Made by a program: the position numbers and the translations under genes
Notes under the pieces: model-generated
What the model was told of the DNA's origin: nothing
Databases searched by the model: none
The model's input: the letters and a program-made list of their open reading frames with translations, nothing else
Assembly (NCBI GenBank): GCA_965203805.1
Contig: OZ241917.1
Span: 384,001-448,000, forward strand
Length of the DNA stretch: 64,000 nucleotides
Reading direction: 5' to 3'
From: Candidatus Latescibacterota bacterium
Lineage (GTDB): Bacteria; Latescibacterota; UBA2968; GCA-2709665
Shown here: one piece after another, positions 12,646 through 64,000 of the stretch
Layout of the letters: each line of letters opens with the position of its first letter
Position numbering within the stretch: the first letter of the stretch is position 1

Positions 12646-13003
12646 TGCTTCCTTTCAGTTATCGATCGATCCATTTTCCGAAGAGATCCAACGTCCGTTA
12701 TACGAGGTGACGTGGTCCGCGGATCGCGCGCGGGGACCGCGGTTCGCCAAACCTCGACTCGTAGCAGACGGAACGGACCACGGAGTGGTCCGGACCGTGC
12801 GACGCCACTGTGTTTCGCTAAAGTACAAAAGGTCCGGAGTCCTGTCAACAGGATCGTGAATTTGCATAAGTCCGGTGTCTCGCGGCCTCTTCCACCGTCC
12901 TTTGTTGCCCGTTTGGCGTGAAGGCGGGTTCGCGTACGCGCCGGACGGATTTCCGGTGGCGCCGCCGGGACCGGCTACCGGCATCGGGAGACGTTCATTC
13001 GGT

Positions 13004-13841: not shown

Positions 13842-13865
13842 GCTTCCATAACAGGAGGTCGGTCA

Positions 13866-14621: not shown

Positions 14622-14687
14622 CGAATGAATGGCGCGGTCAGGCTACCGGCAGGAAGCCGAATCCGGAGTTAAAGAGGAGAACGCTCG

Positions 14688-15731: not shown

Positions 15732-15810
15732 ATGCACCCCATGACCGTGGGACTGGGCCAGCGAGCAGATTGCGCTCGGGTGTTTCACGACGGGTCCCGT
15801 CGGCGTGCCG

Positions 15811-16680: not shown

Positions 16681-16759
16681 TCGGGTCCTCCTGATTTGGG
16701 ACTGCGTTCGGGGCGTTCGTTCGTCGACTGACGAAACATCTGTGCTGACGGTCCGGACG

Positions 16760-43680: not shown

Positions 43681-45138
43681 ATGAAAGATACCCGACCGAA
43701 CATCCTGTGGATCTGTACGGACCAACAGCGGTACGATACCGTACGCGCACTGGGGAACCCCCACGTCGACACGCCCAATATGGACCGGCTTGTCGCGGAC
43801 GGATTCGCCTTTACGCACGCGTACTGCCAGAGCCCGATCTGCACGCCCAGCCGCGCGAGTTTCCTGACCGGCCAATATGCGAGCGCCGTCCACGTGAACG
43901 GAAACGGCAACTCGCACTTTCCGGACGCGCCGCCGCCGGTCACGAAATTGCTCGCGGACAGCGGCTACGACTGCGGTCTGATTGGTAAATTGCACCTGTC
44001 CAGCGCGTTCGGGCGCGTGGAAAAGCGCGTCGATGACGGGTACCGGTACTGGCAATACAGCCACGCGCCGCGGGACGACTGGGAGACCGGGCACGACTAC
44101 GCCGACTGGGTACGGTCGAAGGGAGAGGTGCTGGGTGAGTTGACGAAAAGCCTCGACGGTGTGCCCGCGGCATTGCACCAGACGACCTGGTGTGCGGAGA
44201 AAACCATCGACTTCCTGAGCGAAGCGCGTGACGGTCCCTGGTTGGCCTCCGTCAATATCTACGACCCGCATCCCCCGTTCAATCCGCCGAAGGCGTACCG
44301 CGATCTGTTCGATCCGGAACAGGTGAACGGTCCCCTGTTCAGAGAGAGCGATCTGGCGCAGCAGAAAAAGCTGGAAGCCGTCGATTTTCAGTCCAGAGGA
44401 CGGCATCCGAGTGAGCTGGACATCAAGAGCCCGGTGATCCCCTGGACGCAGACCCGCGGACTGGTCGAGCCGGAGACAACCGGAAAAAGGGACGCCAAAA
44501 CGCTGATCGCCGCGTACTACGCGATGATCAAGCTGATCGACGATCAACTCGGGCGAATTATCGCCGCGCTGGAAGACACCGGCCAGCGCGAGAACACACT
44601 GGTCATCTTAACCAGCGATCACGGGGAGATGCTGGGTGACCACGGGCTGATTCAGAAGGGATGCCGGTTCTACGAAGGGCTGGTGCGGGTGCCGCTGATT
44701 TTCTCGTGGCCGAATCAGGTGAAATCGGGGCAGAGGAGCAACGCGCTCGTCGAATTGCGCGACATCGCTCCACTCCTGTTGGAGACAGCGGGGTTGCCGG
44801 TGCCCGAGCGGATGCAGGCGCGTTCCCTGTTACCCTTGCTGGGCGGCGAAAAATCACCCGGCGAACACCGCGAATTCGTACGGTGCGAGTTTTACGACGC
44901 GCTGGACCAGGCCGACGGGACTTTCGCCACGATGTACCGCGACCGCCGGTACAAACTGGTGGTCTACCACGGGCACGGCCTGGGCGAACTGTATGACCTC
45001 GAGGAGGACCCCGGAGAGTTTGACAATCTGTGGGACAACCCCGATCACGCCGCCGTGAAACTCGACCTGATGCAACGCAGCTTCGACGCCTCAATGCTCG
45101 CCATGGACAGAGGTCCCGAACGCATCGGGCCGATGTGA
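43681..45138 (+). CDS. Sulfatase
   Basis: DQQR, CTPSRASFLTG (CxPxR), GKLH, PHPP, SDHG. Confidence 0.95.
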   Translation: MKDTRPNILWICTDQQRYDTVRALGNPHVDTPNMDRLVADGFAFTHAYCQSPICTPSRASFLTGQYASAVHVNGNGNSHFPDAPPPVTKLLADSGYDCGLIGKLHLSSAFGRVEKRVDDGYRYWQYSHAPRDDWETGHDYADWVRSKGEVLGELTKSLDGVPAALHQTTWCAEKTIDFLSEARDGPWLASVNIYDPHPPFNPPKAYRDLFDPEQVNGPLFRESDLAQQKKLEAVDFQSRGRHPSELDIKSPVIPWTQTRGLVEPETTGKRDAKTLIAAYYAMIKLIDDQLGRIIAALEDTGQRENTLVILTSDHGEMLGDHGLIQKGCRFYEGLVRVPLIFSWPNQVKSGQRSNALVELRDIAPLLLETAGLPVPERMQARSLLPLLGGEKSPGEHREFVRCEFYDALDQADGTFATMYRDRRYKLVVYHGHGLGELYDLEEDPGEFDNLWDNPDHAAVKLDLMQRSFDASMLAMDRGPERIGPM

Positions 45139-45238
45139 GGGAGGGGATGGAGTTTCTCCAACTCTTGCCTTAACGCGCTGATCCTTGAGAGAATCCGACT
45201 GACGCAGCCTATCCTGGTGAAATGTAAGGGAAACCCAA

Positions 45239-46261
45239 ATGGAAATTGATCTGAACAAGATCGTAGACGAACTGAACTTCCTGTCTGCAGGTTATCGGGT
45301 TGGAAACCTTCAACAGCTTCGCCGGAAGATTCAATGCAAGTCGGGAAACTACCGCGGAATGCGCTTGCAAGTTCCGAAGAATAAACACGATTATGCATTT
45401 CATTGGGGCGGCCGCAAAGAGCTGCAGTTCAATTTGGGTATTGAGCATTCCCATATTCGATATGGGCTTGCGTTTTCGTTTGAATCCAGCCGCACCTATC
45501 CGCTTGCCGAACTACGCCGACTCCTTTTTCCAAAAGTGGGACGCTACAACCAATATATCGAGCGGAATGCAGATCGTTTCGCAAATATGAAAATGTGGGA
45601 TTGGGTCGATGATCAGCGGTCGAACGACTATCAACCCGGACCGATCAGGACAGACCTATATCACGGAAAAGTGTTCATATTCTTGGGGCGAAGCAGCACT
45701 CGAGACTCCTGGAATCCACATGAAGTGCTGAAAACCTTTGATGATCTCTTGCCGATCTACGAATACGTTGAAAGCGATGGATCGTCTTCTCTCAAGCCTC
45801 ACCGACACGGAGCAGCCGGATTCTCTTTTCAGCCCGGCTGTACAAACAAGCCGAGCCGAACTATCGCCAAACTGCATCCGGGCATCTCTAACATCCGTCT
45901 ACGCCACAACGATATGCAGTTCACGCTTCACGCCAAACTGGCATCGAAACACGGCAAGGGCAACGTGGGCACGGAAAATCCCAGTGGCAATGGTCTACCC
46001 ATCGACGTCGTCGTTGAACACGAAGACAACACCTATAGTTTCTACGAAATCAAGACCTCACACGATCCGCGCATTTGCATCCGCGAAGCCATGGGCCAAT
46101 TGCTAGAATACGCCTATTGGAACGGTTGTGGCCCAGGGATTCGCAACTTGGTAATCGTCGGACCAAATCCGATTGACTACGACGCCCAAAAGTACCTGCT
46201 GGAGCTAAGGGCAAAATTCAGCCTGCCGATAAAATACGTTCACCTGCGGATTCCAGGTTGA
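45239..46261 (+). CDS. Hypothetical protein with C-terminal PD-(D/E)XK-type nuclease motif
   Basis: IDVVV...FYEIKT...IREAMGQLLEY; first gene of the lower-GC region. Confidence 0.65.
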   Translation: MEIDLNKIVDELNFLSAGYRVGNLQQLRRKIQCKSGNYRGMRLQVPKNKHDYAFHWGGRKELQFNLGIEHSHIRYGLAFSFESSRTYPLAELRRLLFPKVGRYNQYIERNADRFANMKMWDWVDDQRSNDYQPGPIRTDLYHGKVFIFLGRSSTRDSWNPHEVLKTFDDLLPIYEYVESDGSSSLKPHRHGAAGFSFQPGCTNKPSRTIAKLHPGISNIRLRHNDMQFTLHAKLASKHGKGNVGTENPSGNGLPIDVVVEHEDNTYSFYEIKTSHDPRICIREAMGQLLEYAYWNGCGPGIRNLVIVGPNPIDYDAQKYLLELRAKFSLPIKYVHLRIPG

Positions 46262-49112: not shown

Positions 49113-49499
49113 GTTCGCACCTATGACCCAGCGCGCCCGTGAGTCACTTAGCCTGACTAATTCATGAAACTGAACGGAACAGTGTTTTTGGAAGCAAAAA
49201 GTGATCTATAGAAGGGGAAATAGTCAAATGACGTGTTGGTGACGGGATAATGCGTAATTTTGGGTGGTCTGTCAGCATCGAGGGGTGTCGAGTTCTTTGA
49301 TTTGTGGATGGAAAGGACAGACGGATGCCTTGGTCTTACTTTTGGCGATGAGAAAGGGACGGCGGGGCCTGCGTGAAGCGTCTGCGTTATGGAACTGCCT
49401 TTGCCAAATTGCATAGGATGGTGCCATAGAGGTGTTTCAAGGGAAATGAGGTTGGCAAATGGAGTTTGATTTTGGTTTTGAGTTCGGACACTCTCCCGG

Positions 49500-49520
49500 C
49501 CTGTCTGCCGGACAGGCAGG
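49500..49520. repeat. 21-bp palindromic insert, in frame
   Basis: CCTGTCTGCCGGACAGGCAGG; removal gives LKVAGRV. Confidence 0.85.
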
Positions 49521-49726
49521 CGACTTTGAGGATGCGATTCTGAATGGTATTAAACTGCGCGTGCGTCCATTGGGTGGTCCGGAGTCCTTTTTCGGTAAGG
49601 GTGTGCATCAGGACATAAGCGGCACTATGCAGTAAGAGACGGAAGTGATTGGCTTCGAAGGTGTGGCAGGAGGTACGATCGGAATGGAGGAAGGTTTTGT
49701 GATTCTTGATGAAGTTTTCCATCCTG

Positions 49727-49747
49727 CCTGCCTGGCCGGCAGACAGG
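49727..49747. repeat. 21-bp palindromic insert, in frame
   Basis: CCTGCCTGGCCGGCAGACAGG; removal gives YCARGRMENFIK. Confidence 0.88.
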
Positions 49748-50583
49748 CCGCGCGCACAATAGACGGTTTTGTAGAGGAATGAGGGCTGGCTACTCTTCAG
49801 GTTGGTGACGACAAAGCGTGTATTGGCTTGTCCGGAAGCGGTGATTTCAGCTTTGTAGATGATGCGTCTTGGCAGGGCCCAGGAATCTGCCTGGTAAGCG
49901 AAACTGGTAAATCGCTGCACAGGCTGTCCGGTCTCCCGATACTGTGCCTTTGCCTGCTCGATCAGCGCGTGTCCCCGTTGTGCAAGCCTGGCATTGCCCG
50001 TCTGTCCCAGCACGAAATACACCTCTTGCACGTCGCAGAAGTCGTGGACCTCGGGACAGGAAAAATGGCCGTCGCCACGCAAAAAGAGTCGCACGTGCGG
50101 CCACGCCTCGCGAAGGCGTTTCACCAGTCGCTTGAGAACGGTGACAATCTGTTTGCCGGTAGGACGGGCGCCCGGACGCAAAAGCGTCGTGATCAGTCTT
50201 CCTGTCTGCCCTTCATAGATATGCAAGGGACAGTAACAGCGTTCACCATAATAGCCATTGAACATCGCCAACTGTTGACAGCCGTAAACCTCGTCGTCGG
50301 TGTCATCGATATCCAGAACGACCGCGTTGGGAGGCCGCTTGTAGGACGCGATAAACCCGTCCACAAGGGCCTCGGCAATACGATATAAGTCCCGGCGACG
50401 AATGCCGTTTTCCAAACGACTCATCGTGGGTTGGCTGGCCAACGGCGTCCCTGATATCGGCAACCGACCACAGGCCGCCTTGAACGCGGGGTCAAAGCGC
50501 AGCAAATCGCAATCGTTCGCATCTTCATACGCGCACGCGATCTGAAACACACGCTGGCTGATCAGATCCGACATCGTGTGATC

Positions 50584-50616
50584 CCTGCCTGCGCCAAGTG
50601 CAGCGCGGCAGGCAGG
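50584..50616. repeat. 33-bp palindromic insert, in frame
   Basis: CCTGCCTGCGCCAAGTGCAGCGCGGCAGGCAGG; removal gives RHPSYVDHT. Confidence 0.88.
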
Positions 50617-50716
50617 CACATAACTGGGATGCCGACGGTCCGGTAACGCCTCGACGATCCGAGACAGAATGCCGATCTTGGACTCTACCTCTCGAAGCAA
50701 CATCGACCCGATATCG

Positions 50717-50735
50717 CCTGCCTGCAGCAGGCAGG
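50717..50735. repeat. 19-bp palindromic insert, frameshifting
   Basis: CCTGCCTGCAGCAGGCAGG; removal fuses the two frames into FDGGVLTSDIG. Confidence 0.88.
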
Positions 50736-50976
50736 CTGGTGAGCACACCGCCGTCGAAGACGGCTTCCACCTGCTTGCCAGAAACACTTGCGAACGGAAC
50801 TGTGAGTTGACTATCTTGACCTTTCACGGTAGTTTCCTCCTGTTTCATTGCGTTATGGTTATTCGCCTAACCATAATATAATACAATGACTTGGGTAAGG
50901 AAACTACCTTTTTTGTGAATAATTGGGGTCAGACTGACGATACCTATCCATATTCAAAATAGCCGGAGAAAAAAAG

Positions 50977-53900
50977 ATGCATTCCACAGAATCTTTGCAA
51001 TCGACAGTCAAACCTGGTGTAACCGTCGATGGCCCTTTTGTTCCCGAACCTATTGAAGTACTGGCAGTCGTTCCCTTTGGAACATCCTTGAAAGTGATCG
51101 GTAAGGGAACCAAGACTGGCTTGACCCACGATCCTGTTTTGAGTCGAGAGCAGCTATCCAAACTGAACATCTCTGGCGAGAACGAGCCTCTTGACGGGAA
51201 TGCAGCGTTATTCAGGATCGGCATTGAGGCCCATCGGCTTGGTTTGGCCTATGAATATGATCCTTTTTTTTCGCTTTCCATTGCAAGGATAGATCCACTG
51301 CCGCATCAGCTTGAAGCCGTATACGATTATTTTCTAAGACTACCCCGCATTCGGTTCTTGCTTGCTGATGATCCCGGAGCAGGTAAGACCATTATGGCCG
51401 GACTGCTAATCAAGGAGCTGAGAGCAAGGGGCTTGGTAAAGCGCGTTCTGATCGTGGCGCCCGCTAACCTGACGTTTCAGTGGCAGCGAGAACTCAGAGA
51501 TAAATTTCGGGAGTCTTTCGATATTATCAACAGTATGGTACTCCGTACGAACTACGGCCAGAATCCCTGGCAAGAGCGAGACCAGGCTATTACGTCCGTT
51601 TCCTGGGTGTCGCGTATCGAAGATGCTCGTGAGAGTCTACAGCGATCCCGATGGGACCTGATTATTGTAGATGAAGCCCACAAGATGAGTGCCTATGCAC
51701 ACGATCGTAAGACGCTCGCATATCAGCTAGGTGAATCCCTTTCGGAGATGACCGATCATTTTCTATTAATGACAGCAACTCCTCATAAAGGTGACCCCGA
51801 AAACTTCTGTTTGTTTCTCTCGCTTTTAGATCGGGATGTGTATGGTAATGTCGAGAGCCTGAACCACGCAATGTCTCAGAACGAGGCCCCTTTCTATCTT
51901 CGACGCACCAAAGAGGCCTTGGTGTCTTTTCCAGATCCAGATACTGGCGTTGTACATAAGCTGTTTACTAACCGCGAAGTGCATACTGCAGCGTTTGATC
52001 TGGATGGTGAGGAACTCGATTTCTATGATGATTTAACACGGTATGTCGAAGATCAGTCTATTCTGGCTTCAGCCGATAATTCTGCAAGGGGTAGAGCCCT
52101 TGGTTTTACAATGGCAATGCTCCAGCGCCGGATGGCGTCGACGATCTATGCGGTTCGCCGAAGTTTAGAGCGTATGCGGGCTCGGCGTGAAAAGATTCTG
52201 GCCGATCCTGAAGGGTATCGACAGGAACAGATCGAACGAAGGTTTCCGGACGATTATGATGACCTGACCGAAGAAGAACAGCATCAGATTCTGACCGATT
52301 TAGAGGAAGTGGTTGCGTCAGTTGATCCGAGTGCGCTTCGGGAAGAGATTACCCATTTGACGCGATTGATCGGTTCAGCAAGGAAGTTGGAGCACCGTGA
52401 GATCGAATCCAAGTTGGCCAATTTGAAAGACCTGTTGAATAAACGTGGCTTTTTGCGTGATCCGAATAAAAAGCTCCTGGTATTTACTGAACATAAGGAT
52501 TCTCTGGACTATCTGGCTGGAGATGGGAAGGACGGGCGACCATTTGGTAAGCTACGCGCGTGGGGGTTGACGATTACTCAGATTCATGGCGGTATGAAGA
52601 TCGGGGATCGAGATACGCGAGGGACCCGCATCTATGCAGAACGGGAATTTCGAGAATCTGCCCAAATACTAGTGGCAACAGAAGCAGCAGGAGAAGGCAT
52701 CAATCTTCAGTTTTGTAATCAGATGGTCAATTACGACATCCCGTGGAATCCTGTACGATTGGAGCAACGCGTTGGGCGTATTCATCGATATGGTCAGCAA
52801 CACGACTGTTTCATTTTTAACTTTGTTGCCAGAAATACCCGGGAAGGTCGCGTTCTTCAGAAGCTGATGGACCGGCTGCGTGAGATTCGGAGTGAGTTGG
52901 GGACAGATCAGGTATTTGATGTGATTGGCGAAGTATTACCTTCCAATTTGCTAGATCGGCTATTTCGAGATATGTATGCCCGAAGAACAGATGAGCACGC
53001 AGTAGCGCACCGCATTGTTCAGGAAGTGGACTTGAATCGGTTTAAATCCATTACCGAGTCCGCTCTTGAAGGTCTAGCCAAGAAGGAACTAAATCTGTCT
53101 GCCGTTCTTGGCAAATCCGCCGAGGCCAAGGAAAGACGACTGGTGCCTGAGGTGATCGAGCAATTTTTCGTGGAAGCAGGTCCAGTAGCTGGTATTCATC
53201 CAAAGGCCACGTCTCACTGCGGCCAAATATATCGCGTAGGAAAAATACCCAGAACGCTACTTCAAAAAGGGCAGGAAATAGAGGGGCGATTTGGAAGGTT
53301 GGGGAGAGATTATGCGCGTATCGGATTTGACAAGGAGTTGCTAAAAGATCACCCCACATTAGAATGGGTAACCCCTGGCCATCCCCTTTTTGAAGTTGTC
53401 CGAGAGGATGTACTTGAACGCGTGCAAGATCATCTAAACCGGGGGGCAGTGTTTTGGGATCTAAACATACAGGCTGCTGGGATTCTGGACGTTTTTGCTG
53501 CATCGATTAAGGATGGTCTTGGTAACACGCTGCATAGACGTATTTTCGTGGTTGAAACAGATCCCGATGGAGAGATGCAACTCCGACAACCTACCTATTT
53601 CTTGGATATCACGCCAAAGCCTGCCGATGAAACTTCGGCACAGGATCCGAATTTCAAACCACCGGATCGGGTGCTGGCTGAGCGGTTTCTGTTTGAAACG
53701 GCATTACAACCCTGGCTAAATGAATCTGCCGAGCAGAGAGAGAAGGAAGTTGGCATAATTGCCCACCATGTAGGCATCAGCTTGAATGCTTTGATAGATC
53801 GGCAGCAAATCCAGCTTGCAGACTATCTTAATCGTCAGATTGACGGCCAAACTGTTACCGGATTGGATGGTTTGATTGCCCAAGCCGAACAGCATCTGGA

Positions 53901-54438
53901 CGATCTCAACAACCGATTGGAGAACAGAAATAAGGAATTGGAAATGGAGCGCCACTGTACCATCGGAGACATTGCACATCTCGGTCGTGCGATAGTAGTT
54001 CCACATCCCGAACGTCAGACTACAAAATTAGCGCCTATGGTACGGGATGAAAAAATCGAGAAAATAGCGGTACATATGGCCAGGAATTACGAAGAAGCGC
54101 GCGGATGTGTGGTCGAAAGTGTTGAAGCTGACAACCGGGGATTTGATTTGATTTCTCGACGCCCACATCCGGAAGATTCCGACACATTTACAGAAGTAAG
54201 ATTTATTGAAGTAAAGGGGAGGGCCGGAGTTGGGGAGATTTTCTTGAGTACGAATGAATACAGAACCGCAGAACGACTCAAAGACGATTATTGGCTCTAT
54301 ACTGTGTTTAACTGCATAACCGAACCTGACTTACATATTTTTAGAGATCCTGGATCCTTGGATTGGAAACCCATCACGAAAATAGAACATTATCGGATCA
54401 ACCCCAACGCAGTGTTTAGAAACCAGAGCCATGTCTGA
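50977..54438 (+). CDS. SNF2-family helicase with C-terminal DUF3883-like nuclease domain
   Basis: LADDPGAGKT, DEAH, TATPH, GEGINLQ, QRVGRIHRYGQ; C-terminal GFDLIS...FIEVKGR. Confidence 0.92.
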   Translation: MHSTESLQSTVKPGVTVDGPFVPEPIEVLAVVPFGTSLKVIGKGTKTGLTHDPVLSREQLSKLNISGENEPLDGNAALFRIGIEAHRLGLAYEYDPFFSLSIARIDPLPHQLEAVYDYFLRLPRIRFLLADDPGAGKTIMAGLLIKELRARGLVKRVLIVAPANLTFQWQRELRDKFRESFDIINSMVLRTNYGQNPWQERDQAITSVSWVSRIEDARESLQRSRWDLIIVDEAHKMSAYAHDRKTLAYQLGESLSEMTDHFLLMTATPHKGDPENFCLFLSLLDRDVYGNVESLNHAMSQNEAPFYLRRTKEALVSFPDPDTGVVHKLFTNREVHTAAFDLDGEELDFYDDLTRYVEDQSILASADNSARGRALGFTMAMLQRRMASTIYAVRRSLERMRARREKILADPEGYRQEQIERRFPDDYDDLTEEEQHQILTDLEEVVASVDPSALREEITHLTRLIGSARKLEHREIESKLANLKDLLNKRGFLRDPNKKLLVFTEHKDSLDYLAGDGKDGRPFGKLRAWGLTITQIHGGMKIGDRDTRGTRIYAEREFRESAQILVATEAAGEGINLQFCNQMVNYDIPWNPVRLEQRVGRIHRYGQQHDCFIFNFVARNTREGRVLQKLMDRLREIRSELGTDQVFDVIGEVLPSNLLDRLFRDMYARRTDEHAVAHRIVQEVDLNRFKSITESALEGLAKKELNLSAVLGKSAEAKERRLVPEVIEQFFVEAGPVAGIHPKATSHCGQIYRVGKIPRTLLQKGQEIEGRFGRLGRDYARIGFDKELLKDHPTLEWVTPGHPLFEVVREDVLERVQDHLNRGAVFWDLNIQAAGILDVFAASIKDGLGNTLHRRIFVVETDPDGEMQLRQPTYFLDITPKPADETSAQDPNFKPPDRVLAERFLFETALQPWLNESAEQREKEVGIIAHHVGISLNALIDRQQIQLADYLNRQIDGQTVTGLDGLIAQAEQHLDDLNNRLENRNKELEMERHCTIGDIAHLGRAIVVPHPERQTTKLAPMVRDEKIEKIAVHMARNYEEARGCVVESVEADNRGFDLISRRPHPEDSDTFTEVRFIEVKGRAGVGEIFLSTNEYRTAERLKDDYWLYTVFNCITEPDLHIFRDPGSLDWKPITKIEHYRINPNAVFRNQSHV

Positions 54439-55912
54439 TCCGCGCAACGTACTTCAGCGCAAATTTGATTTGCGCCATCGGTCCAGCAACTTTGGAAATG
54501 TAATATCAAAAATGGTGGTAAGAGGGTTTCGCTGTCATCCTCACACGATTATAGATATTCAGAGTCCAATTACTGCTTTTTGTGGTTTGAACGGTGTAGG
54601 AAAATCCACTCTTATCGAACTCGCAGCCTGCGCCTATAAGAACCCTAATGGGCAAAGATTCAATATCAGTAGATTCTTTGCCGTTGGACAACTCGATCCG
54701 GCACCATTTAGCGCCAACGCCTCTGTACAGTATCACTTCGACATACCGGAACAAGGTGAACAAGTCGTAACGATATCTAGAAACCGCCAGCAAAGTCGTT
54801 GGAATGGCTATTCAAGGCGCCCAGCAAGAAATGTTGTTTTTACTGGGCAAGGATTGTATGTATCCCGCTGTGAGAGAAATGATTTCGTGGTTCGGGAGTC
54901 TGCCCGTCTCGATATAACAGAGTCTAAACCAATTGGAGAAGAAGAAATAACAAGATGTTGCGAAATCCTCGGATTGCAATATGAAGAGATCGAAGAGAAA
55001 ACCGTTCGCAGAAAAAAGCAGGAAACTAGTGTCTTAAGCTCTTCAATTGGAGGGAACACATACTCGGAAACCCATATGGGCTTAGGCGAAGGGCGTGTGC
55101 AAACCTTCATAAAAGTTTTTGAATCAGTTGAACGACAAAGCTTAATCCTGATTGAAGAACCAGAACATGCACTTCACCAAAGTGCGCAATATCGACTTGG
55201 TCGCTACCTCGTGGACCTATGTATCCGCAAGGGCCACCAGATGTTCCTTACCACCCATAGTGAGCATCTTCTGAGAGCTTTACCTCAGTTATCTTCTATA
55301 TATTTACACAAAATTCCACAAGGTATTGAAACGATTCCCGGAATGCCTCCTGCTCAGGCTGTGAGCTTGATGGCTGAGGGCTTCGATAAGGCAATTACTC
55401 TGCTTGTGGAAGACGAATGTGCCAAGATTGTCTTGTCTGAAATTCTCAGGCATTTCGATCCAACTTTTCTGGCGTCAGTAAAAATCGAAATTGCTGGATA
55501 TAAAGACGACAGTGGTGAATATGTGGGAGGGGGAAAGGATGCAATTACCAAAACAATGAGAGCTCTAACCAATGTGGGACTGAGCGTAGCTGCAGTTCTA
55601 GATCCTGATGCCTTTTCTGATCCCAAAAATTATGTTTTCAAATTACCTGGTCGAAACGCGCCGGAGTTGGAATTAATTAAATCAACTAAATTTCGAGAGG
55701 TTTTGCTGACCACCTATCAGATTGAGGTAGATAATTTCATTGCAAGCATTAGAACATATGATTGTCATCGATGTTTCTCCCTTCTGGCTAAACAGCTCAA
55801 TGTACACGAATCTTATTTGCTCACTGAAGCGGCACGTGGTTATGCTCCTGAATGCAACAGGTATGAAGCAGAGGTTCTCATTGAACAATTGAAAGAAGCC
55901 GGGAGCCGCTGA
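54431..55912 (+). CDS. ABC-type ATPase fused to TOPRIM-like domain (OLD-like)
   Basis: GLNGVGKST, MGLGE, LIEEPE, TTHS; LLVED and VLDPD. Confidence 0.8.
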   Translation: MSDPRNVLQRKFDLRHRSSNFGNVISKMVVRGFRCHPHTIIDIQSPITAFCGLNGVGKSTLIELAACAYKNPNGQRFNISRFFAVGQLDPAPFSANASVQYHFDIPEQGEQVVTISRNRQQSRWNGYSRRPARNVVFTGQGLYVSRCERNDFVVRESARLDITESKPIGEEEITRCCEILGLQYEEIEEKTVRRKKQETSVLSSSIGGNTYSETHMGLGEGRVQTFIKVFESVERQSLILIEEPEHALHQSAQYRLGRYLVDLCIRKGHQMFLTTHSEHLLRALPQLSSIYLHKIPQGIETIPGMPPAQAVSLMAEGFDKAITLLVEDECAKIVLSEILRHFDPTFLASVKIEIAGYKDDSGEYVGGGKDAITKTMRALTNVGLSVAAVLDPDAFSDPKNYVFKLPGRNAPELELIKSTKFREVLLTTYQIEVDNFIASIRTYDCHRCFSLLAKQLNVHESYLLTEAARGYAPECNRYEAEVLIEQLKEAGSR

Positions 55913-58900
55913 TGGTAGACACCTCCTTTAATTTCCAAGCGGAAGAAAGGAAATTTATGCAGAGCAGATATCCAAAAAGGCTTATAGAAGTTGATCTTCC
56001 GATCTCTCGAATTTCTGCTCAGGCGAGAAGAGAAAAGTCCATTAGAAAAGGACATATCTCCAGTTTACACATTTGGTGGGCGAGGAGGCCATTAGCTGCC
56101 TGTAGAGCTGTATTGTGTGCTTCTCTCTGGCCGGACCCTGTTGATCTGTATGAAAACTGTGCGAAATATAAGGGTTTTGTCCAAGAAAACGGAATTGGAG
56201 TAGCACGCCCAGAACATTTCCTGTACGAAGCTGAAAGACTAATGTCTAAGTGGGCCAAAAAAAACCTCAATCTGGCCAGCCAAAGTTCTTACCGCCGACT
56301 GTTACAGATTCAAAGGGGACGCGAATTTCTTCAAGATCCGGTTAACTTGCGAAACGTGCTACTCGATTTTATCGCAGATTTCAGCATTTGGGAAAACTCC
56401 CAGAAGCACGAATATCTTGAAATTTCACGTGCACTAACATCAGCCGCTCAGGAGACGTTGTATGGGATAAGGGGTACCAATCCTGTCGTTCTAGATCCTT
56501 TTGCTGGTGGCGGTTCTATACCGTTGGAATCCCTGAGATTGGGAGCTGATACATTTGCAATAGATCTCAATCCTGTAGCAGTCTTACTAAATAAGGCCAT
56601 TTTGGAGTATTTACCTAGGTATGGACGAACTCTAGTGAAAGAGATTAACAAATGGGGTGAATGGATACAACGCAAAGCAGAAGAAGAATTGAGCGCATTA
56701 TTTCCGTCATCAAGAGATGGTTCTACTCCCAAAGCGTATTTATGGGCAAGAACCCTTAATTGCGAGGGACCGTCCTGCGGTAAAACTATTCCTGCGATTC
56801 GGACTACAACTCTTCTAACGCGCTCTAAGAACAAACAATATATCAGCATTAAAGGAAATCCAAATCATCCAAAGATTGAAATTGAATTAGTACAGGATAA
56901 ACCAAGCAGAGCCACGATTTCATCAGGCAAACTTACTTGCCCTGTTTGTGGATACACTACCTCTGATAAGAACACAATGAGGCAGATGACGAAGAGAAGA
57001 GGAGGGACAGAAGACGCTTCTCTCATCTGTGTTATAAGCGAGGGTACTGACGGAGCGCGGCAGTTTGATCTCCCTTCGGCCGATGATCTAGTCGCTGCCC
57101 AAGTGTATTCATCTGAGGTTTTATCTGAGCTTTCAAATCAAGGATATAATGCGCCAAAAGATCCTATAAATCCACTTAGACCTTCTCCTAATGCAAGAGG
57201 ACTATCCGCTGTCACTCGTTACGGGATGAGTGCTTTTTCAGATCTTTATACAATACGTCAAAAGGCGACATTACTGACATTTCAGAGAATCATAAATGAA
57301 GCCTCGGAGAAAATGGACGCATCTATTCGCATTCCACTGACGACATTTCTCGCTTTGTCGCTTGGCCGACTACTTGACCGAGATACATCTCTTTGTCGTT
57401 GGATTCCCCAAACAGGCGCAGTCGGCTTTACTTTTGGTCGGCAAGCTTTATCGATGATTTGGGATTTTGTGGAAATTAACCCCTTAACACATTCCGGCGG
57501 ATGGACAGGTGCCTATAAGACAGTGTCCTCTGTCATTGAGGCACAACTATGTATAGAGAAATCCGGTGAGGTTTTCAGTAGTTCTGCAACGTCTCTTGTC
57601 CTGCCGGATGATTCAATAACGATGTTGGCTACTGATCCACCATATTACGACTCGATCCCATATGCAGATCTATCTGATTTTTTTTATGTATGGTTAAAAC
57701 AGCTATTAAGGCCGATTCATAGCTCCCTGTTTTCAAACGAGCTAACTCCGAAAGATGATGAAGTAATTTGGAACCCAAGTAGGTCTTTACCGTGTGGGCA
57801 AAGTAAAGACAAAGAGTTTTATGAATCCATGATGACACGTGCTTTCGAGGAGGGGAGACGCGTTACCGCACCATCTGGTTTAGGCATTGTTGTCTTTGCC
57901 CATAAGTCAACTGATGGATGGGAAGCAATGCTACAATCTTTACTCTCTGCAGGATGGATAATTACTGCATCTTGGCCAATTGATACTGAACGATCTGCTC
58001 GAACAAATGCAATTGGAACAGCCTCATTAGCTTCATCGGTGCATTTAGTGTGTAGACCGCGCGAGATGAGAGATGGAGATATCGGAGAAGATGAGATTGG
58101 TGAATGGCGAGATGTAATATCAGAACTTCCAATACGGATACAAGAATGGATGCAACGGTTAACAGAAGAAGGAATTGTTGGGGCAGATGCTATATTTGCT
58201 TGTTTAGGACCAGCATTAGAAATATTCAGTCGCTATAGCCGAGTTGAAAGGGCAAGTGGTGAAACGGTAGCACTGCGAGAATATCTTGAGCAAGTATGGG
58301 CAGCTGTATCTAATGAGGCTTTGTCCGTAATATTTGAGAGTGCTGATGCACAGGTTTCGGAGCCTGAAGCGCGTTTAACTGCAATGTGGCTATGGACATT
58401 AGGTGCAGGTAGCAAAACTGAAATTGGCGATGGCTTCGGAAATGACCAGTACGACGCACGTGAAGGGAAAGAAACAATACATTCGTCGGGGTTTAATCTT
58501 GAATATGATACAGCACGTAAGATTGCTCAAGGTTTAGGTGTGCACCTTGAGAAAGCAAATTCAGTGGTGGAAGTCAGGGGAGAAAAGGCGAGATTGTTAC
58601 CAGTTATAGAACGGACTCGCTACCTCTTTGGCATAGACAGTGAGTTAGAGACTGGGCGTCGCCGGAGAACCAAGAATGTGAAGCAGCTTTCTCTCTTCAA
58701 TGAGTTAGAAGAAGCGGAAGGTGTTGATGCTGAAGAATTGGAGGCAAATGGTCCGCTTCCAGGCTCGACAATATTAGATCGTGTGCATCAAGCAATGATT
58801 CTCTTTGGGGCGGGACGAGGAGAGGCATTGAGGAGATTCTTGGTACAAGAAGGTATTGGAAAAGATGATGGATTCTGGAAATTGGCTCAAGCTCTCTCAG

Positions 58901-58977
58901 CCCTTTATCCATCAGAAATTGTAGAGAAGAGGTGGGTAGATGGGGTTCTTGCCCGTAAAGGAAGTCTGGGATTCTGA
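55912..58977 (+). CDS. DUF1156 adenine-specific DNA methyltransferase
   Basis: KRLIEVDLP, LHIWWARRPLAACRA, DPFAGGGSIP, TDPPYYD; Cys-pair Zn finger. Confidence 0.92.
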   Translation: MVDTSFNFQAEERKFMQSRYPKRLIEVDLPISRISAQARREKSIRKGHISSLHIWWARRPLAACRAVLCASLWPDPVDLYENCAKYKGFVQENGIGVARPEHFLYEAERLMSKWAKKNLNLASQSSYRRLLQIQRGREFLQDPVNLRNVLLDFIADFSIWENSQKHEYLEISRALTSAAQETLYGIRGTNPVVLDPFAGGGSIPLESLRLGADTFAIDLNPVAVLLNKAILEYLPRYGRTLVKEINKWGEWIQRKAEEELSALFPSSRDGSTPKAYLWARTLNCEGPSCGKTIPAIRTTTLLTRSKNKQYISIKGNPNHPKIEIELVQDKPSRATISSGKLTCPVCGYTTSDKNTMRQMTKRRGGTEDASLICVISEGTDGARQFDLPSADDLVAAQVYSSEVLSELSNQGYNAPKDPINPLRPSPNARGLSAVTRYGMSAFSDLYTIRQKATLLTFQRIINEASEKMDASIRIPLTTFLALSLGRLLDRDTSLCRWIPQTGAVGFTFGRQALSMIWDFVEINPLTHSGGWTGAYKTVSSVIEAQLCIEKSGEVFSSSATSLVLPDDSITMLATDPPYYDSIPYADLSDFFYVWLKQLLRPIHSSLFSNELTPKDDEVIWNPSRSLPCGQSKDKEFYESMMTRAFEEGRRVTAPSGLGIVVFAHKSTDGWEAMLQSLLSAGWIITASWPIDTERSARTNAIGTASLASSVHLVCRPREMRDGDIGEDEIGEWRDVISELPIRIQEWMQRLTEEGIVGADAIFACLGPALEIFSRYSRVERASGETVALREYLEQVWAAVSNEALSVIFESADAQVSEPEARLTAMWLWTLGAGSKTEIGDGFGNDQYDAREGKETIHSSGFNLEYDTARKIAQGLGVHLEKANSVVEVRGEKARLLPVIERTRYLFGIDSELETGRRRRTKNVKQLSLFNELEEAEGVDAEELEANGPLPGSTILDRVHQAMILFGAGRGEALRRFLVQEGIGKDDGFWKLAQALSALYPSEIVEKRWVDGVLARKGSLGF

Positions 58978-58985
58978 GGCATACG

Positions 58986-59585
58986 ATGGATACTCCCCTG
59001 TCTGAGAAATGGACAAGAGCGTTTCGTGATGTTGTCGTGCAGCCTCGAATTTCCGATCCATTGAAGACAACTTCACTTAACGAAGATTTGAGACATTGGA
59101 CAACGCTGTTGACAGATGTTGTTATTGAGAGTTGTAAACAGTTGGATTGGCAGGCTGCAGCCAAGGGTCATACGCTTGATTTGCTTCCTCAGATGGGACA
59201 AGAATACCTCGGCCTTGATGCTGTCGCGTTCGAAGTTTCTCTTAGCCAAATGCAATCCTCTCGTTGGACTTTTCCTGTTGCCGTTTTTGAATTGGAGAAT
59301 AGTCTCTCTGATAATCGTGTGGCTTATTCTCTTTGGAAAGTGATGTGTATAAACGCTGCATTGAGAGTTGTATTTGCCTACCGACGAGATGATCTGAAAG
59401 GAGCAGACCTTGTGAAGTCCTTGAAAACAAACGTCGTTTCAGGGATTCCTTCAATACAACGTACTCGAATATTTGGAGAAACCCTCCTTGTGATAGGGAG
59501 TCGGTCTGATGGACCAACCTTCCCGTGGGGATTCTTCAAATTCTGGCACCTTGATTTGAATACGGGAAGTTTTGTAAAATCTTAA
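58986..59585 (+). CDS. Hypothetical protein, possible restriction-endonuclease-like fold
   Basis: Operonic spacing; EYLGLDAV...AVFELENS pattern. Confidence 0.65.
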   Translation: MDTPLSEKWTRAFRDVVVQPRISDPLKTTSLNEDLRHWTTLLTDVVIESCKQLDWQAAAKGHTLDLLPQMGQEYLGLDAVAFEVSLSQMQSSRWTFPVAVFELENSLSDNRVAYSLWKVMCINAALRVVFAYRRDDLKGADLVKSLKTNVVSGIPSIQRTRIFGETLLVIGSRSDGPTFPWGFFKFWHLDLNTGSFVKS

Positions 59586-59610
59586 CCCAAGGAAAGAGTG
59601 GGAGACAGTT

Positions 59611-62547
59611 ATGGCATCACTGAAGCCGTGGTATCAAGTTGTAACACCAAGAGAGGATTTAAGGGAGAATCGACCGCTTGATGCATCTGAATTTGCCGTT
59701 CATTTGGATCATATCCGTGACAGGCGATCTCATGTGGATTATTGTGAACCAGACCGGTTTTTTGATCGCACATACTTGACCAGGAACTTACTGGATCTGA
59801 CATCACAGGTTGTGCGGAGACTTTCCGGTATCAAGGTTGGGACTTCTGCTGTATTCAATATGGCAACACAATTTGGGGGCGGGAAGACACACGCTTTAAC
59901 TGCCCTTTATCATATAGCTCGCGGCGGAAATAAAGCCAAGGATTGGAAGGGTATCAGTTCAATATTGACTAAAGCACAAGTTCGGGAAGTGCCGAAAGCT
60001 GATGTCGCTGTATTTGTGGGTACTGAGTTCGATGTGCTGGATGGACGGGGTGGAAAAGGAGAACCACATCGCAGAACACCCTGGGGTGAAATTGCCTGGC
60101 AACTTGGAAAGAAGAGAGCATTCGATGTGGTTGCCAGCCATGATGATAAAGGCATTGCCCCTGCAGGTGATGTGATCAGAAAAATGTTGCCAGATGGCCC
60201 TGTGCTGATTCTGATTGATGAATTGTTAAATTATGTCAGTCGTAGTCGCAAATCAGGGCTTTCAGATCAGTTTTATGATTTCGTGCAGAGCTTGTCGGAA
60301 GAATCCCGTGCTCGAGAAAATATCGTGCTTTGTGTTTCGATTCCGGCATCTGAACTTGAGATGAACCCGGAAGATCAGCGGGATTACGATTCTTACAAAA
60401 AGATGTTGGATCGTCTTGGAAAAGTCATCAGTATGGCATCGGATACAGAAGTGACTGAGATTATTCGCCGACGCCTTTTTGAGTGGCACGGCATCCCTAA
60501 CGAAGGGAATCAGGTAGTTGCCGCCTATGCAGAATGGGCACAGCAACATGCTGATGAACTATCAAATTTGGGAGATCGAGATACTGCAGAAGTGTTCCGT
60601 GCCTGTTATCCGTTTCACCCTTCTATGATTTCTGTTTTTGAGCGCAAATGGCAGAGTTTGCCCAGATTCCAGCGCACGCGCGGAATACTGCGTCTTTTCG
60701 CCCTCTGGATTGCACGGCAATATCAAGAGGAACACAAAAAGGCGTCGAGAGAGCCGCTGATCACTCTTGGATCTGCTCCTTTGGAGGATCAGGTTTTCAG
60801 GGATGCAGTATTTGAACAGCTTGGGTCTGATCAGCTTTCTACACCTGTCACGACAGATATTGCGGGCAAAAAGGATGCCCACTCTATCAAGTTGGACCGA
60901 GAGGCAACGGATTCGATCAAGAAGAGCAGGTTACATCAAAAGGTGAGCACTGTCATATTCTTTGAGTGTAATGGGGGGCAAAGCCAGAGTAAAGCTGATG
61001 CTTCGGTTCCTGAGATCCGAACTGCGTTGGGTAGTCCGGATTTAAATCTCGCAGAAATAGAGGCCGTCTTAGAGGGATTGAGTTCTACCTGCTACTATCT
61101 TACGTGGGACCGCAACCGATATCGGTTCGGTTTAAGGCCTAATCTCAACCAGATGCTGGTGACTCGCCGTGGAGCAATATCTGTCAGAGATATTGATGAT
61201 CAGGTACGTAAGACAATTATCGACGTCTTCAAGGATGGGCAACAAGCTCTTGAACGGCGTTATTTTCCTGCACGAAGTAATGACATTCCGGACCGTCCTC
61301 AGTTGACACTGGCAATATTAAGCCCCGATTATCTGGCCAAAGACGCAGAATCCAAAGCACTGATGGAGAAAATGGTTCGGGAATCTGGATTATCGGGACG
61401 CACGTACAAATCAGGCCTGGTCTTTGTAGCTTCAGATTCTGCGACACTAATGACCGAGGCCGCCCGGACACTTCTGGCCTGGGACGACATTCAGGACGAT
61501 GTGGACTCCGTCGCACAATTGGAAGAATCGCAGAAACGGAATTTAACCAGGAGCCTTGGACGTGCCCGATCTGATCTTAAAGAAGCGATCTGGCGTTCCT
61601 ACAGGCATGTCTTCCTATTGGCCGAAAACAATAGACTTAAAGAGGTTGATCTAGGGCAGGTGACATCCAGCATGGCCTCCAATTATGTTGATTTGCTCGT
61701 AAATCAACTTACCCGGGACGATGAAATTACTTCATCTGTAGGCGTCAATCGTCTAATCCGTGTTTGGCCACCTGCCTTGACAGAATGGTCAACAAAAGAT
61801 GTGCGCGATGCGTTTTTTGCTTCTCCAGCTCTTCCCCGATTATTGGAACCAGATTCTATCAAACGGACCATTGCCGACGGTGTCAGCGCTAAGTCGCTTG
61901 GATATGCCCGTAGAGAATCGGATGGGCTAGTTCTCGAAAAATTCGGCGATAGTATGTCTGACCTGGAAGTCGAGATTGACAAAGACGTTTTCATACTCAA
62001 AGCGGATGATGCACAAAAACTGGTTGAACCCCCCAGGCTGGATCGATTGCTCATTCAGCCCGATCAAGCAGAGGCGAATCCTGGAAAGCGTGTGACATTT
62101 TCTGCTACGGGTTTGGATCAATATGGTCACAAATACGATGTTAAGGATGTAAAATGGTTTACGTCAGATGGTGGAATTGATGAAAACGGCCTCCTAATAG
62201 CTGCCGATAACACTGGGATTTATACGATTACTGCTCAGGTTGAAGGTATACAGAATAGTACTCAACTCAGAGTAACAGATAAGGTTCCTGGTGGCGGTGG
62301 TGGAGACGAAAGTGATGACGTTGGCATAGAAGGTGTGACTATACGGTGGCAGGGCGATGTCCCTCCGCAAAAGTGGATGAACTTCTATACCAAAGTCTTG
62401 ACCCGCTTTGTTACAGAGCCCGGATTGAAACTACAGGTCAGTTTTGAGGCGCCCACAGAAGAAGCCGCCGCACAGAACACGCTGGACCAAATTAAGAGCG
62501 CATTGCGCGATCTTGGGCTAGGCGAGGACGCATCGGCTGGACAATAG
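59611..62547 (+). CDS. DUF499 family AAA+ ATPase with late Ig-like domain
   Basis: LKPW..VVTPREDL, EFAVHL, TQFGGGKTH, ILIDE, YPFHP, FQRTRG.LR. Confidence 0.92.
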   Translation: MASLKPWYQVVTPREDLRENRPLDASEFAVHLDHIRDRRSHVDYCEPDRFFDRTYLTRNLLDLTSQVVRRLSGIKVGTSAVFNMATQFGGGKTHALTALYHIARGGNKAKDWKGISSILTKAQVREVPKADVAVFVGTEFDVLDGRGGKGEPHRRTPWGEIAWQLGKKRAFDVVASHDDKGIAPAGDVIRKMLPDGPVLILIDELLNYVSRSRKSGLSDQFYDFVQSLSEESRARENIVLCVSIPASELEMNPEDQRDYDSYKKMLDRLGKVISMASDTEVTEIIRRRLFEWHGIPNEGNQVVAAYAEWAQQHADELSNLGDRDTAEVFRACYPFHPSMISVFERKWQSLPRFQRTRGILRLFALWIARQYQEEHKKASREPLITLGSAPLEDQVFRDAVFEQLGSDQLSTPVTTDIAGKKDAHSIKLDREATDSIKKSRLHQKVSTVIFFECNGGQSQSKADASVPEIRTALGSPDLNLAEIEAVLEGLSSTCYYLTWDRNRYRFGLRPNLNQMLVTRRGAISVRDIDDQVRKTIIDVFKDGQQALERRYFPARSNDIPDRPQLTLAILSPDYLAKDAESKALMEKMVRESGLSGRTYKSGLVFVASDSATLMTEAARTLLAWDDIQDDVDSVAQLEESQKRNLTRSLGRARSDLKEAIWRSYRHVFLLAENNRLKEVDLGQVTSSMASNYVDLLVNQLTRDDEITSSVGVNRLIRVWPPALTEWSTKDVRDAFFASPALPRLLEPDSIKRTIADGVSAKSLGYARRESDGLVLEKFGDSMSDLEVEIDKDVFILKADDAQKLVEPPRLDRLLIQPDQAEANPGKRVTFSATGLDQYGHKYDVKDVKWFTSDGGIDENGLLIAADNTGIYTITAQVEGIQNSTQLRVTDKVPGGGGGDESDDVGIEGVTIRWQGDVPPQKWMNFYTKVLTRFVTEPGLKLQVSFEAPTEEAAAQNTLDQIKSALRDLGLGEDASAGQ

Positions 62548-62595
62548 CGTTAGGACCTGACAAGATTTACATCTCTCCAGTAAGGACCGCTTCCG

Positions 62596-63363
62596 ATGGG
62601 ACACGAAAGAACAGGAACACTTCCCCGTTCGCAGCAATGGCGAAGTGTTGTCGCCCACATTGCCCAATTTCCGGAAGAAGGCAACGTTTCGGATGTTGCT
62701 AAAGCAATCATTTCTAATGTTCGGAAGCAGTTCCTTCAGATTCATAGAGACGATGGCGTTAAAGCCGCGTTTGGGTTCCTTATAGCGCTTTCGCGCGCTT
62801 CCGTCTCAGATGAATCTGAACCTCTTTATGTAGATCTCTCCTCAAATCCCTCACCTCTCCGAATCTCCTTAGACCTGTCCAAATGGGTCAAAGCACACAC
62901 TAATTCTCTTGAATATGCGGAAATTGCACAGAAAGCCGCCATAGACGCTGTGGGAATATGGACCCGGCAACAACAGCAGCAACAGACCATCTTCAACGAT
63001 TACAGCGACGCTGTTGAAGTGTGGCGAAAAGCGGGTGACGGCAGCGGATTTTGTGTGGTGGCACGACTGTTCTTTGCCAAATTTACAGAGAAATATCTCA
63101 ACTACTTTCTTGAGAGAGAAGCATCGGCCGTCCTGCCAAATGTGAAGACACGTGATGAATTCTCCTCCCTTTTGGAAGAACATATCGACGCTGTTTCTGA
63201 TCATGCGTTTGAAACCGCCAGAATTGCGCGATCGTTTGCTGCTGGATGGTACAATAATCACGCACTTAAGGGAATGCCATCAAATGAGGAAACAGAGCGA
63301 TTTTTGGCAGTAGCGTTTGGCAAAATCCGCGAGGAATTAATGCGGGAAAGTGTCCAGATATGA
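62596..63363 (+). CDS. Helical hypothetical protein, putative QueC partner (QatB-like position)
   Basis: Starts MGHERTG.LPR; its stop overlaps the QueC-like start (ATGA). Confidence 0.7.
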   Translation: MGHERTGTLPRSQQWRSVVAHIAQFPEEGNVSDVAKAIISNVRKQFLQIHRDDGVKAAFGFLIALSRASVSDESEPLYVDLSSNPSPLRISLDLSKWVKAHTNSLEYAEIAQKAAIDAVGIWTRQQQQQQTIFNDYSDAVEVWRKAGDGSGFCVVARLFFAKFTEKYLNYFLEREASAVLPNVKTRDEFSSLLEEHIDAVSDHAFETARIARSFAAGWYNNHALKGMPSNEETERFLAVAFGKIREELMRESVQI

Positions 63364-64000
63364 CGAGAGACGCCTCCCACATTATTCTGTGCAATAATGC
63401 TGAAATGGATGGCAGCAAGCTTGGGAAATCCGTGAAGCGGCTTAACTATCTGGAGGAAGCCACCAGGAATGTCAATCTCCTGCTTCCCGATTTTGTCAGA
63501 GGCGTATATTATCTGCCCGACCGACTGTTAGATCTTCTTGAGATAGCATCATTTGTTTACAACGGCGATCGAATGACTACCCGAGGTTCTCGAGATGCAG
63601 TAGAATATCACAGTTGGTCTCGGACGCTTGAATTCGTTATCCGGGTTCGCGATGAACAATTTTGGAATAAACCCGAGGTTAAACAGGCTTTGGCGGCAGC
63701 GTTGAGATTTGTAACCGGTGATCGAGAGTATCGGTTTCATTTCCACCCGGGTCATTCAACTTCACCCACCAGTCTCTTTGACCGGCAGGAGTTCAGTGTT
63801 GCCGTCAAAAAGGACGTTTCTGTCATACTCTTCTCAGGTGGGCTTGATTCACTAGCCGGAGTGCTGGAACGGTTGTTAAATACTGACGACCAATTGTGTT
63901 TGGTTAGCCACCAGTCACTTCAGCCGAGCATAATCAGAACTCAGGAACGCCTCGTAGATACTCTGAAATCACGCTTTCCAAATCGAATTTACCACTATCG
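63360..64000 (+). CDS. QatC/QueC-like (7-cyano-7-deazaguanine synthase fold) protein, truncated by the window end
   Basis: Manual translation: MTRDASH...DLLEIASFVYNGDR..RG...WSR...RVRD..FW...LRFVTGD...VILFSGGLDSLAG...LVSH; PP-loop preceded by a QatC-type N-terminal extension. Confidence 0.85.
   Translation, partial: MTRDASHIILCNNAEMDGSKLGKSVKRLNYLEEATRNVNLLLPDFVRGVYYLPDRLLDLLEIASFVYNGDRMTTRGSRDAVEYHSWSRTLEFVIRVRDEQFWNKPEVKQALAAALRFVTGDREYRFHFHPGHSTSPTSLFDRQEFSVAVKKDVSVILFSGGLDSLAGVLERLLNTDDQLCLVSHQSLQPSIIRTQERLVDTLKSRFPNRIYHY

Follow-up and report, generated by a model that had tools for sequence, protein, structure and literature searches.

At the right-hand end of a stretch of 64,000 nucleotides from a Candidatus Latescibacterota bacterium (contig OZ241917.1, positions 384,001 to 448,000, or G000:C1:384001-448000; here called the window), seven genes follow one another on the + strand from position 50977 through the window end, and they raise the question of whether one defence system or several are encoded there. 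An initial annotation, made from the sequence alone, had read them as perhaps a single composite system without a name, in which DNA methylation would be coupled to deazaguanine chemistry through a QueC-like enzyme. The positions, tight junctions and domain calls given there stand, except that the last open reading frame (ORF) runs past the window and encodes 619 amino acids (aa) rather than 213 (coordinates called window-equivalent continue the same numbering past 64000); the call of a defence island is likewise confirmed. The composite itself, however, does not hold. The first five genes are a named system, Hma, with an inserted gene and a further conserved one, and the terminal pair, encoding an MGH protein and a QatC-like enzyme, is a real and apparently undescribed QatBC variant whose fused output domain can be exchanged.

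The QatBC-like pair and its output domains

The second gene of the pair encodes a PP-loop enzyme that resembles QatC in both sequence and structure. It matches the PADLOC QatC model (E 9e-45), PDB entries 9vlk and 9zee (E 8.7e-23 and 2e-20) and, by Foldseek, QatC 9y01_B (E 1.9e-19, TM 0.75 by target length); on the QatC equivalog NF041925 it scores 178.1 bits and does not reach the cut-off of 280. Tabulated against seven canonical QatC, its motifs SGGxDS, QRxRxF, ENG, S/T-R-T-T-H-P and TK and its four Zn cysteines are those of canonical QatC, not of QueC/Cap9, and the N-terminal extension of QatC is also present (the motifs of the QatC cluster are defined in the accessible text of PMC13329287 and PMC13279940). 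The C-terminal part of the enzyme is a REase_DpnII-MboI nuclease domain (PF18742, E 7.7e-11). Two canonical-like QueC genes are also found in the host genome.

The gene in front encodes the all-alpha MGH protein, which begins MGHER. Its Gly2-His3 does not vary across an alignment of 70 rows and is found in 80 of 81 loci, and Gly2 is, by analogy with QatB, the putative acceptor of a tag. A structure model of the protein (pLDDT 82.9) aligns with QatB 9y02_A over 198 of 211 residues at Z 11.4 (root-mean-square deviation 4.2); helical bundles may reach a Z of about 13 by chance, but this match covers the whole domain, and the next unrelated chain, at Z 7.2, falls 4 short of it. Foldseek places QatB at ranks 1-2 with a probability of 0.98. 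Sequence searches returned no match in Pfam (one at E 0.088), PADLOC, PHROGs, NCBIfam or PDB sequences, and none to the NCBIfam QatB model NF041924, on which a canonical QatB used as control reached 178.9 bits against a cut-off of 100. In the ESM Atlas the protein falls among unnamed clusters; a cluster containing QatB (15% of its members) came at rank 15 with a score of 0.88, which is a lead only. The QatB fold of the one protein and the QatC matches of the other thus bear out the first reading of the last two genes as QatBC-like.

Homologues of the MGH protein number 672 in a 90% collection; at 50% identity there are 958 representatives, fragments included. No homologue was found in GenBank phages, a 401-genome sample of one phylum gave two matches, one of them the seed genome, and 72,556 plasmids gave one. 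(This plasmid match, L082:8001-10645, is an MGH and enzyme-nuclease pair from Leptospira noguchii; its two genes carry the annotation hypothetical, and an IS982 transposase lies beside them.) When the best 80 of 156 relatives in GTDB genomes were kept, a QatC-like enzyme lay directly behind MGH in 78; loci L072 and L074 have MGH without the enzyme (all loci were found through MGH, so the reverse could not show). The C-termini of the 78 enzymes comprise 65 nucleases, 7 TIR_2 domains, 2 others and 4 that are shortened or ended by a contig edge; the 2 others, those of L056 and L039, have no Pfam match, and that of L056 is nuclease-like by eye. Residues E532, D546, E556 and K558, which form a D..ExK site, are invariant in 52 sequences of the nuclease form, and the seven TIR_2 forms, all from Poribacteria, all have the catalytic-type Glu. 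In a quick tree of 72 enzyme cores, rooted at its midpoint and made without bootstrap, the extended enzymes stand apart from canonical QatC (SH-aLRT 100), and the nuclease/TIR group lies on one side of a branch (100). The TIR forms are nested inside the nuclease clade (97), the only part of the tree for which an order of events is claimed.

A sister clade of MGH proteins occurs in 108 IMG/VR contigs, of which 80 were kept (their enzymes group into 43 clusters at 90% identity and 28 at 70%). In all 80 a QatC-like gene lies directly behind MGH, and it ends differently: 24 enzymes match a winged-helix profile, 51 have a conserved, largely helical domain of about 200 aa, and 5 have neither. The winged-helix profile, built from 17 of the 24, retrieves OmpR/PhoB DNA-binding domains from PDB (best E 7.6e-4), and the Pfam Trans_reg_C cut-off is passed by 2 of 21 enzymes scanned. 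The helical domain (within L089-L148) does not align to the winged-helix group and has no convincing match in PDB sequences or Pfam. Of the 73 loci with enough upstream sequence, 59 have a large serine integrase within about 3 kb on that side, as against an integrase match in 1 of 81 host-clade loci, and the common neighbours are phage early and replication genes. Of 5 proviral records tested for a GpA-type terminase, 4 of them classed as provirus by IMG/VR, only 1 has it, so that some of these elements may be satellites or similar to integrative conjugative elements. Across the two clades, then, the output domain of the QatC-like enzyme is exchangeable and may be a nuclease, a TIR, a winged helix or a helical domain.

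A modelled 1:1 complex of the MGH protein and the enzyme scores 0.82, compared with 0.00 for the best of three controls; the mark for such scores is reached by 116 of 157 solved pairs and 2 of 215 mismatched ones. The runs agree in at least 81% of contacts, with a partner pLDDT of at least 82. In the model, the interface includes partner residues 3-11 and enzyme residues 227-228, 267-276 and 349-350, which would place the N-terminal residues of the partner at the active-site loops of the enzyme.

The pair thus shares with the QatBC of QatABCD (PDB 9y01/9y02, 9vlk and 9zee; accessible text of PMC13279940, PMC13376578 and PMC13639016) the fold of the partner, a Gly2 of the essential type, the gene order and overlap, the QatC-specific motifs and the modelled tail-in-active-site complex. 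It differs in several respects. The enzyme is about 170 aa longer, has a fused, exchangeable nuclease, TIR or winged helix and falls in a separate clade; the MGH protein begins MGHER with a short tail, whereas QatB begins MGTS with a tail of 30-90 residues, and it is not recognised by the QatB sequence model. In addition, QatA and QatD are missing. As the initial annotation had supposed, there is no QatA-type ATPase: PF07693 has no match in the whole genome, which is 99.8% complete, nor among 98 flanking proteins of the GTDB loci (nearest co-oriented ORFs of at least 150 aa within 1.2 kb, 2 of 100 candidates being left out). TatD is likewise absent from the 98 flanking proteins and from the neighbourhood of the window pair, though no genome-wide search for TatD was made. 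Reading beyond the window, as the annotation had advised, shows neither a TatD nor a KAP-ATPase gene behind the pair; the next long ORF in the same direction is dprA-like. Beyond the two genes, no family is found repeatedly in more than 12 of the 81 loci.

Type IV CBASS (bioRxiv 10.1101/2025.04.06.647259), in which the QueC-fold enzyme Cap9 acts on CdnD, offers a second comparison, as there too the substrate is a Gly2-initial protein. However, no CD-NTase, Cap10 or Cap11 is found among the neighbours of the pair, the window enzyme is of the long QatC type, the Tyr/Asp base-binding pair of Cap9 is replaced in it by Ser-Arg-Thr, and the effector is a domain of the enzyme itself, not a protein that a second messenger activates.

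According to the available part of PMC13434339, 98.1% of surveyed qat operons are canonical qatABCD, and the available part of PMC13329287 reports that only about one third of the QatC sequence cluster adjoins qatA and qatD; pairs such as this one may explain that fraction. The literature searched, which excluded most subscription papers and supplements, yielded no QatBC pair whose enzyme is fused to a nuclease, TIR or winged helix, and three Qat papers checked for the word 'fused' do not contain it; the neighbourhood table of PMC13329287 and the candidate tables of PMC13069673 could hold such proteins unnamed. The accessible text of PMC13279940 and PMC13639016 describes two questions as open, namely the way in which QatBC blocks phage and the nature of what QatC adds to QatB, and a two-gene version with a nuclease or TIR output offers a direct readout, as DNA cleavage or NAD+ loss, for the trigger, the substrate and the gating.

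Two other arrangements of related enzymes were seen. At L266:14663-18638 and L210:3412-7149, a further QatC-like variant lacks QatA and QatD and has the order small upstream protein (not MGH-like in L266), enzyme of 460-480 aa, XRE-HTH/IrrE-type metallopeptidase and small gene (annotated as PIN in L210). At L171:3046-6887 (G000:C1:4097045-4100886), a SLATT two-transmembrane effector, a TGT-like Cap10, an OGG-like Cap11, a Cap9-like QueC and a Gly2-initial ThsB TIR make up a Thoeris operon that includes accessory genes of type IV CBASS, adjoining a type I restriction-modification specificity gene; this arrangement has already been described (bioRxiv 10.64898/2025.12.03.692087).

A proposed tagging switch and its competitors

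We propose, with a probability of roughly 0.6, that the pair is a two-gene defence switch, in which the enzyme would tag Gly2 of the MGH protein and the tagging state would gate the fused effector, probably via a dimer or oligomer state. By the chemistry of QatBC and Cap9, removal of Met would expose Gly2, and the enzyme would adenylate the carboxylate of 7-carboxy-7-deazaguanine or a related molecule and join the activated molecule to Gly2 by an amide link. Upon infection the tagging state would alter the complex, most likely in the way that it dimerises or oligomerises, and the altered complex would turn on the fused domain, by which DNA would be cut or NAD+ would be depleted or used in signalling; the fused domain would take the place of QatA and QatD. 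The reason for supposing dimerisation is that DpnII-type nucleases, TIR domains and OmpR-type winged helices each function in dimeric or oligomeric form. In favour of the proposal are the coupling of the two genes, the independence of the pair from Hma, the QatB-like fold, the QatC motifs, the modelled complex, the invariant nuclease residues and the TIR forms nested in the nuclease clade. The next co-oriented neighbour, moreover, is a restriction-modification, toxin-antitoxin or other defence gene in 28 of 80 loci (Pfam names read by eye). The accessible text of PMC13279940 reports that QatBC alone defends and that Gly2 is required.

Several points weigh against this proposal. According to that text, QatC has yet to be made to work in vitro, and the identity of its substrate is still open. 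The likeness of MGH to QatB has an E value of 0.18 and an identity of 11-15% in Foldseek, an HH comparison with one canonical QatB gave a probability of 0.84, and QatB was not among the matches listed by a wide VIA structural search of 48,161 representative chains, which were led by dynamin stalks at Z no higher than 7.1. The score of the modelled complex may reflect likeness to the solved QatBC complex rather than binding, and no listed contact in it reaches the nuclease domain, so that gating is not seen there. Several copies of the pair are broken or interrupted (L004, L007 and L036, for example). The number of loci with a defence neighbour is a raw count without a background rate. Finally, the DNA-binding domains and the proviral position of the sister clade may mean that the core is regulatory and not a phage sensor.

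An unlikely alternative, although one that several features of the loci would fit, is a guard or toxin-antitoxin arrangement, in which the MGH protein, tagged or not, would keep the fused nuclease or TIR constitutively off until a phage protein, or a drain on the tag precursor (by phages that make 7-deazaguanine DNA, for example), disturbed the complex and released the effector; the module might then also be an addiction cassette. The strict coupling of the two genes through overlapping stop and start, with the partner first and the toxin-bearing gene second, speaks for this arrangement, as do the frequency of toxin-antitoxin and insertion sequence (IS) neighbours and the retention of MGH without the enzyme in L072 and L074. 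Loss of Gly2 in canonical Qat, however, abolishes defence and is not reported as lethal in the accessible text of PMC13279940, and the complex model has no contact between partner and nuclease.

It is less likely again that the pair is mainly a regulatory switch of integrative elements, with the host nuclease and TIR forms being captured copies that either target mobile elements at large or have undergone partial decay. This is what the 108 IMG/VR contigs, the upstream integrases, the OmpR/PhoB-like winged helix and the phage early and replication neighbours would lead one to expect. On the other hand, the clade of the window is set off by a long, fully supported branch, and the host clade keeps its invariant nuclease residues and all but lacks integrase matches. 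Prophages, moreover, often carry defence genes beside integrases.

The proposed defence switch could also be one case of something broader. We consider it possible, if somewhat doubtful, that the QatB/QatC N-terminal tagging pair is a general-purpose switch with plug-in outputs and not only a defence core; a nuclease or TIR would then serve in host defence islands, and an OmpR-like or helical domain beside a provirus integrase, where tagging of a protein with a nucleobase would regulate gene expression of the element or its lysis-lysogeny decision. The proviral winged-helix form does suggest a second, regulatory use of the tagging chemistry.

The Hma unit and its relation to the pair

The first five genes (Table 1) are the Hma system with an inserted HEC-04 and a 199-aa gene, and they therefore have a name. 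A PADLOC run, which the initial annotation had recommended, names Hma and HEC-04 and assigns the enzyme to QatC, with no match for the MGH protein. The match to HmaA spans residues 12-1111, with Pfam SNF2, Helicase_C and NOV_C domains, Walker A and DEAH; hmaB has the motifs DPFxGxG and DPPY; and the HEC-04 match covers positions 16-404 of a 494-position profile, with a Pfam ABC-type ATPase, a Walker A motif and acidic motifs of the TOPRIM type (located by pattern and without alignment to experimentally tested residues). The seven ORFs are joined, in order, by an 8-bp overlap, a 1-bp overlap, gaps of 8, 25 and 48 bp, and a 4-bp overlap.

Table 1. Coordinates of the seven genes and of the flanking repeat (window positions unless marked G000:C1).
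Feature	Position	Strand	Length	Match
hmaA, SNF2 helicase with C-terminal DUF3883/NOV_C nuclease	50977..54438	+	1153 aa	PADLOC HmaA, E 7.5e-196
HEC-04, ABC ATPase-TOPRIM fusion inserted in Hma	54431..55912	+	493 aa	best PADLOC match, E 3.1e-43
hmaB, DUF1156 N6-adenine methyltransferase	55912..58977	+	1021 aa	PADLOC HmaB, E 4.6e-117
199-aa conserved gene, no family	58986..59585	+	199 aa	
hmaC, DUF499 AAA+ ATPase	59611..62547	+	978 aa	PADLOC HmaC, E 2.9e-118; PF04465
MGH protein, all-alpha QatB-fold partner, N-terminal Gly2-His3	62596..63363	+	255 aa	
QatC-like PP-loop enzyme fused to REase_DpnII-MboI nuclease	63360..64000 (5' part), to G000:C1:449219 (window-equivalent 65219)	+	619 aa	
Left copy of direct repeat (sulfatase gene 3' end)	44810..45146	+	337 bp	97.9% identity, blastn
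Right copy of direct repeat	G000:C1:458872-459208		337 bp	

As expected for Hma (Payne et al., bioRxiv 10.1101/2024.01.29.577857, PMC11232893 and PMC12839542, in the parts available), the unit has a helicase-nuclease, an N6-methyltransferase and a DUF499 ATPase in the order A-B-C with genes inserted, and all three PADLOC models match the window genes over most of their length. In itself it is ordinary, with HEC-04 in its known insertion slot. The accessible text of Payne et al. gives embedded genes in 62.7% of 1,485 systems and validates HEC-04; that of PMC11232893 shows defence by HmaA and terms the locus an insertion hotspot; and that of PMC12839542 renames Hma as DUF499-centred BREX-related systems, the word 'QueC' not occurring in the main text available. 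The HEC-04 of the window, an ABC ATPase-TOPRIM fusion lodged between hma genes, shows no substantial difference from that described in the available part of bioRxiv 10.1101/2024.01.29.577857. (In a contig of a close strain, record 23 of run X7, the middle of hmaB, window 56015-58487, is exchanged for unlike sequence, as expected for target-recognition swapping in a methyltransferase.)

A difference from published Hma is the 199-aa gene, which is a regular fourth gene of this subfamily and belongs to no library family. Its product has 860 homologues and no match in Pfam, PADLOC, PHROG, NCBIfam or PDB, and a single-protein scan found no viral relatives. When the subfamily was followed through this gene in metagenomes (best 80 of 267 loci), 66 loci contained hmaB, 60 hmaC, 31 hmaA and 6 HEC-04, these being 6 of the 31 that reach hmaA. 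Among loci with enough sequence on the side concerned, the gene stands directly after hmaB in 52 of 68 and directly before hmaC in 43 of 59. Its invariant columns, D78 and E102-x-E104, may form a PD-(D/E)XK-like site, judging from the motif only.

The same scans answer the question of whether Hma and the pair belong together, for which the annotation had suggested counting how often the pair follows DUF499. A full hmaC lies upstream of MGH in 1 of the 80 GTDB loci (L025); two more have a match, as a 57-residue remnant (L002) or downstream on the opposite strand (L045), and the other 77 have none within up to 10 kb on each side. Conversely, none of the 80 Hma-subfamily loci from metagenomes contains MGH; in 30 of them at least 1 kb follows hmaC. 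Among 61 related genomes, DUF499 matches occur in 27 and MGH in 4, the two being adjacent only in the genome of the window, which holds five DUF499 loci and a single MGH. Because the Hma loci lack MGH and 77 of the 80 MGH loci have no hmaC match, the Hma unit and the pair are two independent defence units that share one island, and with the composite unsupported the locus as a whole is ordinary. The annotation had named two outcomes that would refute the composite, rarity of the pair beside DUF499 and a match to a described system, and both are seen here.

A single system coupling DNA methylation to deazaguanine chemistry is therefore very improbable, although hmaC and MGH are co-oriented 48 bp apart, no + strand terminator-like site separates them (weak evidence, as the promoter/terminator scan of the locus gave signals at chance level), the unrelated Chloroflexota locus L025 has the same gene order, L002 retains the last 57 hmaC codons ahead of MGH, and the junction is inherited locally, because contigs of close strains bridge it (X7 record 24 and X4 record 6), which does count against independence; against the composite stand, besides these counts, a second MGH copy in run X7 with different upstream DNA (record 25) and the standing of Hma as an insertion hotspot in the accessible text of bioRxiv 10.1101/2024.01.29.577857 and PMC11232893.

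The island

The G+C content of the seven-gene block is 0.43-0.49, compared with about 0.6 in the flanking host DNA, and it falls just after the left copy of a repeat of the 3' end of a sulfatase gene. The two copies lie about 30 kb apart, and the right one probably bounds the island. At the left edge, a low-GC gene of 340 aa (window 45239-46261) has no family match; it has a paralogue of 36% identity at G000:C1:2575275, and its C-terminus is PD-(D/E)XK-like by eye. It is followed by a PHP-ABC ATPase fusion (window 46302-49112) that lies above the cut-off of the NCBIfam TrlF family (534.9 versus 350) and is Ppl-like in PADLOC; a relative of this gene sits after hmaC in locus L246. A multi-copy IS of the DDE_Tnp_1_4 type (window 49387-50787, - strand) is inserted between the TrlF-like gene and hmaA. 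At L001:3569-4474, 12048-12671 and 13633-16825, a recQ-like gene with a dprA-like partner is accompanied by two more dprA-like copies or fragments, 89-99% alike, which suggests tandem growth of the island through local duplication.

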